DNA of 64,000 bases from Mobula hypostoma. Taxonomy: Eukaryota. The notes beneath the pieces were generated by a model that was not told the origin of the DNA, ran no database searches, and was given only the letters and a program-made list of their open reading frames with translations. How positions within the stretch are numbered: position 1 is the stretch's first letter; every line of letters starts with the position of its first letter. Made by a program: the position numbers and the translations under genes. Positions 4,101 to 32,099 of this stretch are shown in pieces. The stretch spans positions 9,238,001 to 9,302,000 of the forward strand of contig NC_086097.1 in NCBI RefSeq assembly GCF_963921235.1, in the 5' to 3' direction.

Positions 4101-4488
4101 CATCATCATCATCATTATCAACATTATGTGCTGTGTCTTATGACATGGGCCATCATGGTCTGTGACCATGATTGTTCGTGACACATTTTTCTACAGAAGT
4201 GGTTTGCCATTGCCTTCTTCTGGGCGGTGACTTTACAGGAAGGACAAGTCCAGCCATTATCATACTCTTCAGAGATTGTTTGCCTGGCGTTACTGATCAC
4301 ATAACCAGGACTTGTGATATGCACCAGCTACTCATACGACCATCCACCACCTGCTCCCATGGCTGCACGTGACCCTGATTGGGGGACAAAGTAGGTGTTA
4401 CGGCTTGCCCAAGGGTGACCTGCAGGCTAGTGGAGGGAAGAAGCACTTTACAACTCCTTTGGTAGAAACGTAGCTCCACCCTCCCATC
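4101..4488 (-). mobile_element. RTE-related non-autonomous retroelement
   Basis: gaaggcaatggcaaaccact motif and (GAT)n tail; related copies at 20540-20905 (+), 2051-2185 and 44983-45080. Confidence 0.7.
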
Positions 4489-11505: not shown

Positions 11506-12664
11506 CAGCAACTTCTTTTACACAATATTGCTCTGCAATTCACTGCTTCGAGATTCGAGATTAAAGATCGCTTAATGGCATTTCCAGTACACAAGTGTAA
11601 AGCAGAATGAACTAATTGTTGCCGCACAAACACAATAAGATAGAGAACACAATAGTAACAAATACAATGAATATGAAAATATATGAAAGCTTATATACAG
11701 TAGATTGATTGTATGTAGATAAAGTGACTAGACACAGCAGTGTCTGTACATAAGGTGTCCTTTGACAGGAATTGATAAAGTAGTGGTGGTGGATGGTGTG
11801 GTTGTGGGTGGAGGAGTTGATAAGCCTTACTGCTTAGGGAAAGAGACTGATTTTGAGCCCCGAAGAAGGGTCTCAGCCCAAAACGGTGACTATTTATTCA
11901 TTTCCATAGATGTTGCCTAACCTGCTGTGTTCCTCCATCATTTTGTGTATATTGCGTTGGATTTCCATCTTCTGCAGTTTCTCATGTTTCAAGCAGAGAT
12001 GATTGCTTTATTTCTGCATAGCTGATGTGCAGCCTCCTCTCTGATGTGAGTAGAATATAACAGTCCACGAGCAGGGTGGGTGGGCACCTTTCTCTATATA
12101 TGTCCTTGACAGCGAGGACACTAGTGACAGTGAAGCATTTAATCTTCTTATCTCTGGCTTTTGGTGACCTATTATGACTTCCAAGATAGTTTAGTAAGCC
12201 AATCACTTGATAAGCGATAGAGATCGAATGGCAATGAGGAATTGACAATGATGGCAAAATGCCCAAATACTGTATTTCAAGAAAATTATCTAAAAATTGT
12301 AAGAATTCTCAATGTTACAGTTAAATAGGCTATAATAGTTTTAGAATACACAAACAGATATCAGGGAACTCATTTCATCCAATTCAGTCAAGGTACTGTT
12401 AAGGAACAGCGAAGTAATTTTTGCAATATTACCTGAGCACACAAAATACAAGTAATATTTCTGGAATCTCCATGGAAGTGTCTAGACCCTATGTCCATAT
12501 GTCCTGTTGAAAACTCACTGCTCTTGGAAGAAAGTATAATGAGGGCTAACTAAAAACAAAAGAATTGTAAAGTATTGAGAAATATCATTAGCTACTTTTA
12601 ACTTTCCTTTATATACTAGATCAAGATAGCAAACAGAGATGCTTGCCTTATTTCAGCATTGGAA

Positions 12665-17228: not shown

Positions 17229-19099
17229 ACATATTAGTTGGAATATAGGTTTATGAAAAGGAAATTGAATGTTTTGTACATGTAAAGTTTTATGTTGCAT
17301 TAATCTAAAGGAGGAGGAAGTGCAACGTGTAGGTCTATTTCCTTTAGAATAATGACACCACCCCCCCCCAGCACAACATATCCATCTGTTGTCCGTGCCT
17401 GCGCATTGACCTGTTGTCTACACGTGTGCATTGCTCCCTCTTTCTCTCACTGCAATGTGAATACACCAGCTAAAGCCACCTCCCGTGTGCATGCTTTTAT
17501 TTGATGGATATGTGGTTGTACACAGGCACTGCAACATGGCTTAAGGATGCAGCCAATCAGAGTTCTGATGAAATGCCATTGACCCAAAGCATCACAGTCA
17601 TTTCTCTTACCACAGTTGCTTCCAGAGCTGCTGAAGATTTCCAACAGTTGCTGTTTTCATTTAACATTCCTGGTGTTCTCAGCATCCTGCTTTTGCAGCT
17701 TTTTAATGTGTTAGTCATTGCAGAGATCTTTCAAGGTGCCTTATTTTCAAGCGGTAAATGAAAATTCACTTGCTTTTAGGAATACTCAAGACCACATTAG
17801 TTACATGTATGTTAATGCATCCTGTTCAGTATCACTTCGGACAATGTTTCCATCCTGAATTTTTGTAGCATATGTTTGTGATAGTAAGAATATACATCTA
17901 AACAACAAAACAAAATACCCTCAACCTGGCTCCCCTTCTTCCCTTTCTCCCATGGTCCGTTGTCCTCTTGTATCAGATTCCTTCCTCTCTAGACCTTTAT
18001 CTTTTCCACCTATCATCTTCTAACTTATTACTTTATCTCCCCCTCCTTCCCCACCCAGATGGCTTCACCTATCACCTCCTAGCCTGTACTCCTTCCCCAC
18101 CCCCACTTTCTTATTCTGGCTTCTTCCCCCTTTCTTTCCAGTTCAGATAAAGTATCTCGGCTCAAATGGCAATTCATTTCCATAGATGCTGCCTGATCCG
18201 CCAAATTCCTCCAGCATTTTGTGTGTGTTGCTCTGGATTTCCAGCAAGTGTAGAATCCCTTGTGTTCAAACTAGACATTGTGAATGCTTTAAGAATATTG
18301 TGAAGGGATGAGCAAATTAATCAGATGCTTTGGAATGTGTAATAGCTGAATGATTTTGAAACTATTCCATACAACATGAGGAGATGTCATGACCACAGTC
18401 TCTCTGAGATTCTAAATGAGAAGCATATGGACATTTGCCTTCTGTTTTGTAACCCTCGTTGTCAATATTTCTTCAGGCAACATAAACACTCATCTGTACA
18501 CTGCATGAGAGAATTAGCAGGATTTAATTTTTGTCTGGGGTTTCCAAATACTTTAATGACATGAAGAATTATTGCACAGTATAAGGTTTCTGTAAAGCCA
18601 TCAGAACATTCCCAAAATGGACAGTTGTTGATTTTGATAAATCATCTGCCACAAGCGGGTCTTCTCGATAGCCAAACATTTTAATTTCCATTCCCGTTCC
18701 CATTCCCATTCCCATTCCAAGGTTTTGGCCCATGGCTGCCTTCTGTACCACGATTCGGCCTCTCTCAATGTGGAGAAGCAACATCTTATATTCCATCTGG
18801 GTAACCTTCAACCTGATGGCTTGAATATCAATTTATCCTTCCCCCCCACTCTGACCTGTAACCTCTTCTCACCTATCAATCACCTTCCCCTGTGTCTTCC
18901 CTCTTCCTTCTCATTCTCACATGCTCCTTCCTCCTCTCCCATTAGTTTCCTTCCTTGACCTTTCCCACCCACCTAGCTTCACCTGTCACTTTCCAGTAGC
19001 CTCCTTCTCCTCCCCTCTTCTTCGTATTCTGGCATCTTCCCCCTTCTTTCTCAGTCCAGAAGAAGTGTCTTGGCCCAAATCCTCGACCATGAATTCATT

Positions 19100-19702
19100 A
19101 GGGGACGGGTGAGTCCTGAGCTGGATGCCCTGCTCACCTCAGGAAGGTGAAGCATATCCCATAGCCTCTCCTTTCCAGTTGTGATCATCACAGGACCACT
19201 GTTTGGCTTACCATGCAGGAGGTCACTTACATATGTCCTCTCCTACACTATTGTGCCCAAAGCAATGCCTTCACATGACGTCCCTGATCTTACTGAGTTT
19301 GCAATGTCGTGTTGCGGCCGCGTGTCCAGTGGTATAGCTGGACGGGCAGGCTGGGCTCGACAGCCTTGGTTGGCAGCCAGTCTAGGAGGACAGCTCTGAT
19401 TCCAACCCCGGGTAGATGGGGGTCATTAACCTTGCCAGGCAGTCAGTCTAGGAGGAGGAAAACTCTGATACCCAGCCTACAGCCTTGTGGTCGCCACAGT
19501 TGTCACAGCTTGCTGTGCCATTGTGGAGCGTCCATGGCCAAGAGAGTGGAATCAGTCCTCGCGCACTGATCCTCATTATAAACCTCTGCAGTGCAGGCAG
19601 AAAGTTGGCCTCTACAGTCACCGACAATCGTGCTGACACTCCTGAGGAGTCTTTTTCCTTCCTGATCATTGCAAGCAAAGAACCAGCCATCATCATCATC
19701 AT
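19100..19702 (+). mobile_element. Non-autonomous RTE-derived retroelement
   Basis: Duplicated RTE 5'-UTR-type motif ggcagccagtctaggagga..aactctgat, (CAT)n tail, TSD attcatt/attcgtt (19093-99 and 19703-09). Confidence 0.75.
19101..19311 (+). ncRNA. Candidate HDV-like ribozyme (decayed)
   Basis: P1 GGGGAC/GUCCCU with G-U at position 1; P3 GCC/GAC; L3 UUCACAU; P1.1 UC/GA; candidate catalytic C at 19302. Confidence 0.55.
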
Positions 19703-19799
19703 ATTCGTTTCCATTGGTGCTGCTTGACCTACTGAGCTCCTCCAGCATTTTATACGTGCTACACGATTTCAATATTATTTTTAAGATTTTTGAGGCGAA

Positions 19800-19931
19800 G
19801 ATTCTTTTTCTCCCAGGAGTGAGGTCTTTGGAGCTTCTGTTGGTGTTTCCACACCTCTGGGTTTTATGGGATGGGGTTGGTAGCCTCAGCCCAACACAGC
19901 TGGGATTGGGACCATCCATGGCAGGGTTATG
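19800..19931 (-). mobile_element. RTE 5' UTR fragment with twister-ribozyme remnant
   Basis: Reverse strand caTAACCCTGCCatggatGGTCCCAAtCCCAG...gttgggctgaggctaccaaccccatcccataaaa. Confidence 0.6.
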
Positions 19932-30425: not shown

Positions 30426-32099
30426 GATTGAGGTGCCTGTAGACAGCACCTTATGTGACTTGATGTGCTGGCTCTCTGTTTATATATTCAGGTACCACAG
30501 CAGTGTAGCAGTTAGTTTGACACATTTACAGCTTGGAGCTTTGTGATTTTGGAGTTCAGTCCCATTGTCCTCTGTAAGGAGTCTCTGTACGTTCTCGCTG
30601 TGGAATGCATGGGTTTTCTCCAGGTCCTCCTCTCTCCTCTTACAGCCCAAAGACATACTGGGGTTTAACTGGTTTTTGCAACTGGTGAGGATTAGGGTTA
30701 AATCATGTTTGTCAGGGGTGCTGGGCAGTGTGGCTCGAATGGCCAAAAGGGCCTGTTCCTCACTGTATCTCAAAGCCACACAGACAAAATGCTGGAGGAA
30801 CTCAGCAGGTCAGGCAGCATCGGTGGAAAAAAGGTTAAAGTCTGTCCCGAGCCTTGTGGCCCATCAGGCCGGTGCTTATGCCGGTTTCTGTGACGTGAAA
30901 AGAGTCAACAATATTCAAAATACCGGAGGAACTCAGCAGGCCAGGCAGCATCAATGGAAAAGAGTCAACAATATTCAAAGCTGGGTTTTTTTGTTCTATT
31001 GAAACCAAAGCTGAGGTGCATCAACAAAGGTAAATCTCTCAAGCCTTGTGTTGCACTATTTCTCTGCATAGCCTTCAACTGAGACATTATATTGTCTCCA
31101 AATTCAAAGAGCTCAATATCTGCTCAAGCACAAAATTATTTATTCAGAGATAGTAACACTGTGCCTTTCCAGCTGTGACATGACCTTGAGGAAGATAAAC
31201 ATGTGAATGGGATCTCCACTGTCCCAGTTAATCAACATGTCGATTATTTTATTTTATTTAATTTAGCAATCTGATCTTCAAACCACGGTGCCCCAGCAAC
31301 TCCTGACAAAACCAATTAACCCTAACATCATCACAGGAAAAACTTGCAATGATTAATTAATCTATACAGTACACCTTTAGACTGCGGGAGGAAACCGAAT
31401 CATGTAGAGAAAACCCACGCATTCAATGGGGGCGGGGGAGAGGAAATGTGCAGACTCCTTACACAACAATGCTGGAATTGAACTCCGAACTCTAGAATGT
31501 TCCGAGCTGTAAAGGTTTCACACTAACTGCTATGCTACTGTCTGTCCAACCTAACCTTTTGCATTCTTCTTGGACAAACTGAGACAAAAGCTGTCAGTAA
31601 CTTCTTTTTTAATTTAGTAATATTTTCTGTTGTTGAAGGGAACAGCCTTAATTTTGAGGTGTTCATCATACATTGTGATGGTAGTGGATTCCCTGATCAA
31701 AAAGCCCTAAACTGAAAAGAAAGTTTTAAGCCCTATCCAATATACTGTAGATAACCATGGGTACCTTCACTATAGGGAGGTTATACTGGATCTACCTGCT
31801 CTTTAAGGACTAGCTTACTTCCCTGTCTAGTCTCTGCCAATACTCACCCAGTCAAGAGTTTCTGCAGATGCTGGAGATCCAGAGCAACACACACAAGAAG
31901 GGTCTTGGCCTGAAATGTTGACTGTTTATTCACTTCCATAGATGCTACCTGACCTGCTGGGTTCCTCCAGCGTTTTGTTTGTGTTGACAATCCCCACTAC
32001 TTGAGTGGGAGGCTCCCCCCTCCCTACCAAGGAGGATATTCTTCCAGCTAGAGATTCCTCAGCTACGAAATTTGAACCCATATTAACATGGAATTCAAT

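Follow-up and report, generated by a model that had tools for sequence, protein, structure and literature searches.

The question raised by this locus is whether a short non-coding retroelement of Mobula hypostoma begins with a self-cleaving RNA whose cut would set the first base of the element. The stretch analyzed, called the window throughout, comprises 64,000 nucleotides of the forward strand of contig NC_086097.1 (9,238,001–9,302,000), in an assembly of 3.48 Gb and 200 contigs, and the element lies at 19101–19702 of it. A preliminary description, made from this single copy, had read its 5′ part as a hepatitis delta virus (HDV)-like ribozyme heading a non-autonomous RTE element. We compared the window copy with its relatives in the same genome, here called family A, and with a sister family, B. 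Very probably, the element represents a non-autonomous, internally deleted and now dead copy whose first ~206 bases (19101–19306) are a decayed HDV-like ribozyme, with predicted cleavage just 5′ of its first base, G1, and whose parent was an RTE-type long interspersed nuclear element (LINE). The parts of the ribozyme are listed below as they lie in the window copy (P, paired helix; J, joining segment; L, loop), with the basis of each assignment in brackets.

19101–19106, forward strand: P1 5′ strand, GGGGAC, with the predicted cut 5′ of G19101 (sequence and consensus)
19107–19257, forward strand: J1/2 insert, 151 nt against 154 in the consensus, with three predicted hairpin domains, the first at 19107–19139 (RNAfold)
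19258–19265, forward strand: P2 5′ strand, CAAAGCAA in the window copy, with U at consensus position 163 (consensus)
19267–19269, forward strand: P3 5′ strand, GCC (sequence and consensus)
19270–19276, forward strand: L3 loop, UUCACAU (consensus UUCACGU), in which C19272 is the P1.1 partner (sequence and consensus)
19277–19279, forward strand: P3 3′ strand, GAC (consensus GGC; one mismatch in the window copy) (sequence and consensus)
19280–19285, forward strand: P1 3′ strand, GUCCCU (sequence and consensus)
19286–19287, forward strand: 3′ side of P1.1, G19286 with C19272, and A19287 with U19271 in the window copy only (consensus)
19288–19292, forward strand: five-base linker UCUUA in place of P4 (both families; precedent in PMC3774820)
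19293–19296, forward strand: J4/2, CUGA (C-N-R-A), in which C19293 is the candidate catalytic cytosine (consensus of A and B)
19299–19306, forward strand: P2 3′ strand, UUGCAAUG in the window copy, with U at consensus position 206 and containing GCAA (consensus)

Consensus fold, covariation and element boundaries

The motifs named in the preliminary description (GGGGAC, GTCCCT, GCC/GAC, TTCACAT, TC/GA, GCAA and a hairpin within J1/2) all lie where it had placed them. P1 of the window copy has six pairs, including a G19101-U19285 wobble, and the ~150-nt J1/2 that had been described with a hairpin of its own is indeed predicted to be structured, its first hairpin being formed by GGGTGAG (19107–13) and CTCACCT (19133–39). 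The copy had also been called decayed. It fits the strand order of the pseudoknot with three helix mismatches, one in P3 and two in P2, and is identical to the family A consensus at 187 of 215 positions; as a ribozyme it is probably inactive, to judge from its sequence.

To avoid helix bias, the family A sample was selected by a 30-nt motif in J1/2, outside the helices. This motif had 211 matches in the genome, compared with 0 for a reversed control, and the consensus was built from the first 100 of the 211 listed matches and numbered from G1. A separate genome search with 19080–19730 as query gave 792 first-look candidates, 40 of which were scored and showed 75–82% identity. Pair counts were scripted on within-family alignments.

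In the consensus, P1 begins at the first base of the element, pairing 1–6 (GGGGAC) with 183–188 (GUCCCU). P2 pairs 161–168 (CAUAGCAA) with 202–209 (UUGCUAUG) in eight perfect pairs and lies one base from P3, the unpaired C169 standing between them, and P3 is a perfect GCC (170–172) with GGC (180–182) that closes the loop UUCACGU. For the family, the preliminary description had expected a good P2 and the sequence GCC-UUCACGU-GGC; the consensus of 100 copies has exactly this loop and its closing helix as well as the eight-pair P2. Its remark that P2 and P4 are weak holds for P2 of the window copy, where the two mismatches are found, but P4 is absent rather than weak: only 13 bases separate the 3′ strands of P1 and P2, which leaves no P4 throughout the family. 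These 13 bases are G189, U190, UCUUA (191–195), CUGA (196–199), G200 and U201. We infer that P2 could gain a ninth pair, C169-G200, if base 201 bulged out, leaving a four-base J4/2 as in HDV. An alternative P2, GCCAUG in J1/2 with CAUGGC downstream, lies 51 nt from P3 and was rejected.

Each core base of the consensus is the majority base in 53–90 of the 100 copies, with the lowest counts at CpG sites. At position 6, T was found in 46 copies and C in 37, and the dinucleotides at positions 6–7 were TG in 32, CA in 14 and CG in 11. This is the pattern of CpG decay, and the ancestral base 6 was therefore taken to be C.

The part of the preliminary description that did not hold concerns the catalytic cytosine, which it had placed at C19302 within GCAA. 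That base lies in the 3′ strand of P2. The conserved C-N-R-A is CUGA at 19293–96, two bases before this strand, and its first base, C196 (window C19293), which is C in 78 of the 100 copies of family A, would be the better candidate. The P1.1 that had been proposed, UC with GA, survives by half. The pair C175-G189 is kept (a standard pair in 78/100 family A and 17/21 family B copies), but a U-U mismatch occupies the second position in both families and the U-A pair is peculiar to the window copy, since position 190 is U in 81 and A in only 4 of the 100 family A copies.

Family B, found through the locus L160, is a younger LINE of the same genome, with a 5′ untranslated region (UTR) ~72% and a reverse transcriptase ~52% identical to those of family A. 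It gave 418 first-look candidates; among 39 non-self hits, 20 begin at the identical base and 33 within three bases of it. The 20 copies aligned together with L160 (n = 21) have a median identity of 94.6% to their own consensus. In this family, P1 is GGGGGGC/GCCCCCC, 7 bp long, with G1-C instead of G1-U; P2 is CGUAGCAA/UUGCUACG; P3 is ACC/GGU, in which the changed pair is standard in all 21 copies; and L3 is UUCUCGUC. The five-base linker standing in for P4 is UUCCA, and it is followed by CCGA with C in 21/21 copies. The J4/2 cytosine is the sole linker C kept in both families. RNAfold gave the same three-domain layout for the 154-nt J1/2 of the A consensus and for that of B.

The two consensus sequences differ at 45 of 212 aligned columns, yet none of the 17 helix pairs is broken. 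Three pairs show double changes and one a one-sided change (G1-U to G-C). The double changes are compensatory and fall one in each helix: A5-U184 to G-C in P1, A162-U208 to G-C in P2, and G170-C182 to A-U in P3. When unconstrained change at the observed rate was simulated, no broken pair was seen in 3,803 of 400,000 runs, and no broken pair together with at least three double changes in 49 of 400,000.

The fold begins where the element begins. A pile-up of 5′ ends at G1 had been expected, and among 101 rows 50 start at G1, 12 at base 2 and 31 at bases 3–12, with 8 unclear. The preliminary description had taken copies extending well upstream of 19101 as a sign against its reading; conservation upstream of G1 was sought across the family A rows and none was found, the 14 bases before G1 being unrelated between copies. 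Target-site duplications end 0–4 bases before G1 in 10 of the 28 copies with both ends. A script had flagged 12 of the 28, of which L012 and L013 were excluded as artefacts (strings cut at the end of a piece). The script missed the window copy, in which a 7-bp duplication flanking the element was read by eye. The element and its borders are as follows.

19093–19099, forward strand: left target-site duplication, ATTCATT (read from the sequence and from host-repeat copies)
19100, forward strand: single extra A between duplication and element, as at many LINE 5′ junctions; other copies have 0–4 extra bases
19101–19702, forward strand: whole non-autonomous element, 602 nt, consisting of the 5′ 500 nt and the 3′ ~100 nt of the LINE with the open reading frame (ORF) deleted (match to the full-length copy L044)
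19599–19688, forward strand: 3′ module, the final codons of the LINE ORF and a short 3′ UTR (comparison with L044)
19689–19702, forward strand: (ATC)n trimer tail (sequence and family copies)
19703–19709, forward strand: right target-site duplication, ATTCGTT (read from the sequence and from host-repeat copies)

The insertion site lies inside an abundant repeat whose other copies in the window (families D1 and D6) are uninterrupted there. Because these copies read through the site, the boundaries of the element are independent of the fold. The host repeat occupies 19000–19099 and 19703–19763 and recurs at ~10 further sites in the window, for example 11862–11956 and 31894–31988; its 62-nt core has 11 copies in the 64 kb, and it often occurs in inverted pairs with another conserved segment (D1, D2, D6, I9, I12). 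Elsewhere in the window, four repeat pairs (D5, D9, D10, D13), among them 7712–8096/34187–34585 and 27617–27936/54092–54398, are spaced by 26,462–26,489 bases at 85–97% identity. Such near-equal spacing may point to a long composite repeat or to an old tandem duplication of large size. No counterpart of the element at 19101 was seen at +26.5 kb.

Cleavage or a structural role

For a formal comparison, we used an HDV descriptor anchored at base 1 that consists of P1, P3 with L3, the P1.1 G, P2 adjoining P3, and CNRA before the 3′ strand of P2. Both the family A consensus (with C at position 6) and the family B consensus match this descriptor, compared with 3 of 60,000 dinucleotide shuffles of each consensus.

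Several observations weigh against reading the fold as a ribozyme. The descriptor was composed after the fold had been seen, and single copies seldom pass it in full (4/100 in family A and 3/21 in family B), so that nearly all genomic copies would be dead. The window copy, taken alone, fails it, owing to the mismatch in P3 and the two in P2. P1.1 consists of one G-C pair beside a U-U mismatch, compared with two G-C pairs in HDV; the G1-U wobble of HDV is G1-C in family B; and the P4 helix is absent in both families. The covariation comes from two families only and is thus a single evolutionary contrast, and all three double changes are transition pairs favored by CpG chemistry. An Rfam scan of the whole window gave nothing at the gathering threshold, and none of the HDV-type Rfam families matched 18900–19900, six well-kept copies or L186 (a remote metagenome relative described below) at E values up to 10. 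RNAalifold on a MAFFT alignment of A and B gave −10.5 kcal/mol and a shifted P1-like helix.

Some of these points can be accounted for. A non-match in Rfam is expected from the 154-nt J1/2 insert and the lack of P4. The RNAalifold result is uninformative because MAFFT misplaces the indel between L3 and the 3′ strand of P1 and because the method cannot draw pseudoknots. The missing P4 is not disqualifying, since P4 is reported as dispensable for activity and as absent from moth R2 ribozymes in the parts of PMC3774820 on which we draw.

A different explanation of the same fold is that the conserved pseudoknot is a non-cleaving structure of the 5′ UTR, serving protein binding or the start of translation, with G1 set by an internal promoter. 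Covariation implies selection for pairing and not for catalysis, and the weak P1.1, the absent P4, the loss of the G1-U wobble in family B and the lack of an Rfam HDV match would all sit easily with such a role; HDV-like folds of R2 have also been described as protein-binding and translation-promoting (PMC6765202, in part). However, P1 is the helix that starts exactly where the element starts, and it is there that HDV-type ribozymes cut. The C-N-R-A stands in the place of J4/2 in both families with its C invariant between them, the layout without P4 has also been described for moth R2 (PMC3774820, in part), and RTE and Baggins are described as having no promoters of their own (PMC6765202, in part). 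We therefore regard a purely structural role as unlikely, and a decayed self-cleaving ribozyme as the better account of the first ~206 bases.

Parent LINE and proposed mechanism

Family A copies have ~500 bases in common at the 5′ end and 45–100 at the 3′ end, with an intervening length that varies. A decayed full-length copy with the same ends was found at L044:139–4175, giving a parent LINE of ~4 kb. Positions 2–505 of the window element match L044:140–639 and positions 499–595 match L044:4072–4166. Because it shares both ends with L044, the element is an internal-deletion derivative, which bears out the term non-autonomous used in the preliminary description. It retains the 5′ UTR, the last ORF codons, a 3′ UTR of ~60 nt and the tail. 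Internal-deletion forms of ~0.5 to 1.55 kb coexist in the genome (L005, L016, L024, L028, L035); this suggests that non-autonomous derivatives were born repeatedly rather than from one founder. As full-length parents, L024 and L031 were rejected, being cut by another insertion and having no long ORF.

An amphioxus protein of 1053 residues, P0002, aligns collinearly (residues 2–331 and 333–1050) with two frames of L044, which carries at least one frameshift. P0002 has an AP-type (apurinic/apyrimidinic) endonuclease at 7–243 and a reverse transcriptase at 542–809, and L044:2270–3097 matches the domain RVT_1 (E = 1.1e-17). The protein match stops at 4111, and the element itself closes near 4175 in an (ATC)n tail. 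In PMC1291365 (in part), the marks quoted for the RTE clade are a single ORF of ~1000 residues with endonuclease and reverse transcriptase, a very short 3′ UTR of trimer-to-pentamer repeats, and SINE-like derivatives (short interspersed nuclear elements). In the parent, all of the quoted marks were seen, namely the ORF, the short 3′ UTR with trimer tail and the derivatives, with a repeat that is not strictly AT-rich.

Where matches to the P0002 endonuclease carry a name, it is in many cases 'craniofacial development protein 2(-like)'. Bovine craniofacial development protein 2 presumably contains an RTE-1/BovB endonuclease. Among bird proteins, only those of a parrot and of manakins were hit, and these lineages carry AviRTE (PMC4844689, in part). 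The assignment of the parent to RTE, already made in the preliminary description, is thus supported by anatomy and by named relatives.

The fold could be real and the parent nevertheless lie outside RTE, as a CR1-, L2- or jockey-like LINE; an HDV-like ribozyme would then be a first for such a clade. The sole names on the reverse-transcriptase hits are 'mobile element jockey', and the genome holds a very abundant LINE family at 44% identity to the reverse-transcriptase piece. Against this stand the single ORF of L044 with endonuclease and reverse transcriptase, ending ~60 nt before the trimer tail in keeping with the RTE hallmarks (PMC1291365, in part), the endonuclease relatives with the craniofacial name, and bird hits restricted to AviRTE-carrying lineages (PMC4844689, in part). 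We consider a parent outside RTE quite unlikely. The abundant family is itself young (L153–L157; C50:39668667–39670467 and others), with open frames of up to 1129 residues, and its 5′ region, seen in five copies, is GC-rich and unrelated to that of family A.

A chance resemblance, in which a low-information motif was picked out by eye in one decayed copy, is highly improbable: HDV descriptors do match frequently in large genomes and the window copy alone fails ours, but the consensus repairs every defect of this copy as predicted beforehand, shuffles match the descriptor only 3 times in 60,000, and in a second family the fold has survived three compensatory changes.

The reverse transcriptase of family A, though decayed, is 69–70% identical to amphioxus proteins (P0001, P0002), and relatives at 54–77% occur in corals (P0014), molluscs, urchins and shrimps; an electric ray protein (P0219) is also among the relatives. 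Such patchy high similarity across animals would fit horizontal spread, which is known for RTE elements.

A distant relative was found on a metagenome contig, L186, whose protein is 49% identical to P0012, itself a relative of family A. Its HDV-like core lies in the 5′ UTR, ~770 bases upstream of the endonuclease, and has a 10-bp P2, GCC-UCCUCGU-GGC with CCUCCUCGUGG, a P4-like hairpin and CUAA before the 3′ strand of P2; possible P1 partners lie 190–210 bases upstream. In the R2 ribozyme, no part is more strongly conserved than CCUCCUCGUGG, according to PMC5035012 (in part). As a single copy, this core may be counted as support for a ribozyme in the lineage and not as proof. A second, smaller descriptor match at L186:199–335, with CGAA before the 3′ strand of P2 and without the P1.1 G, is probably due to chance, helped by a 10-base direct repeat at 196–205 and 211–220. 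Upstream of the RTE-like element, L186:1–110 looks tRNA-derived by eye and may be a SINE.

The mechanism that we propose would run as follows in active master elements. RNA would arise by read-through from host or neighboring promoters and fold into a nested double pseudoknot, with a P1 of 6 bp from G1, a P2 of 8 bp, a P3 of 3 bp with a 7-nt L3, a one-pair P1.1, no P4 and a J1/2 of ~154 nt. C196 (window C19293) of the CNRA would then cut the chain just 5′ of G1, and the RNA set free would start with the first base of the element. Its 3′ end and (ATC)n tail, shared with the full-length LINE, would be recognized by the reverse transcriptase of that LINE and the RNA copied into new sites, so that the non-coding derivatives would be mobilized in trans. 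Release from host transcripts by self-cleavage of this type is an established route for such elements.

A bolder extension is that the parent belongs to an ancient RTE lineage, at ~70% reverse-transcriptase identity to amphioxus, which would have carried a P4-less ribozyme with a long J1/2 since before the vertebrates, with hundreds of copies in this genome, and that copies of the younger family may still cut. We think this rather unlikely. If it were true, sense-oriented copies inside genes could cut host pre-mRNAs, and domesticated vertebrate ribozymes like that of CPEB3 could plausibly have been seeded by such elements.

Comparison with known systems

Few LINE 5′ ribozymes come with comparative support, and few come from vertebrate-sized genomes. 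At this locus, predictions made from one decayed copy were then confirmed by the family consensus and by a sister family. The layout, with no P4 and a large structured J1/2, is a clean natural example of a minimal architecture, and the locus shows how non-coding deletion derivatives can multiply with nothing left of the parent but the ribozyme and the 3′ end. Annotation based on Rfam misses ribozymes of this layout entirely. A literature search on HDV-like ribozymes in sharks found no report on LINE ribozymes in such fishes, which does not establish their absence from print.

Ruminski et al. reportedly described, in 2011 (J Biol Chem), RTE and other non-LTR (long terminal repeat) retrotransposons that carry HDV-like ribozymes at their 5′ ends. 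As in those elements, the ribozyme here comes first in the element, the cut is predicted at the 5′ junction and no promoter of its own is evident; the parent is likewise a LINE that encodes an endonuclease and a reverse transcriptase and closes with a short 3′ UTR and a tail of repeats. The present case differs in its vertebrate-sized genome, the absence of P4 and the structured J1/2 of 154 nt.

The trypanosome element NARTc is also non-autonomous and internally deleted. Short internally deleted R2 elements are said to have been described by Eickbush and Eickbush in 2012 (Mob DNA). Like these, the window element is internally deleted, keeps the 5′ ribozyme and the 3′ end of its parent and would be moved by the parent's protein. 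It differs from them in clade and host and in the coexistence of several deletion forms.

In the parts of the literature cited here, 5′-junction cleavage by ribozymes is reported for R2, R4, L1 and RTE (PMC3774820) and also for Baggins and RTE (PMC6765202), and a structured J1/2 is described as activating or speeding up large HDV-like ribozymes (PMC4908430). Silkmoth R2 (Eickbush, Burke and Eickbush 2013, PMC3774820, in part) resembles the element in having no P4 and a very long J1/2, 216–498 nt in moth R2 ribozymes compared with 154 nt here, and in an L4 and J4/2 region where conservation is confined to the catalytic C and one A; an abalone ribozyme in the same source has 5 nt replacing P4. 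In contrast to the dispersed element described here, whose P1 is element sequence, silkmoth R2 is site-specific in 28S ribosomal DNA and the 5′ strand of its P1 can be 28S (PMC3774820, in part). The LINE clade and the endonuclease type also differ.

With the genomic HDV and CPEB3 ribozymes, the element shares the strand order P1, P2, P3, L3, P3′, P1′, P1.1, J4/2 and P2′ (a prime marks a 3′ strand), the G1-U wobble (in family A), a P3 of 3 bp that closes a 7-nt loop and C-N-R-A before the 3′ strand of P2. It departs from them in lacking P4 and an Rfam match, in its one-pair P1.1 and in a J1/2 of 154 nt where they have a few bases. The class to which the predicted ribozyme belongs is already known, and its layout is uncommon but precedented.

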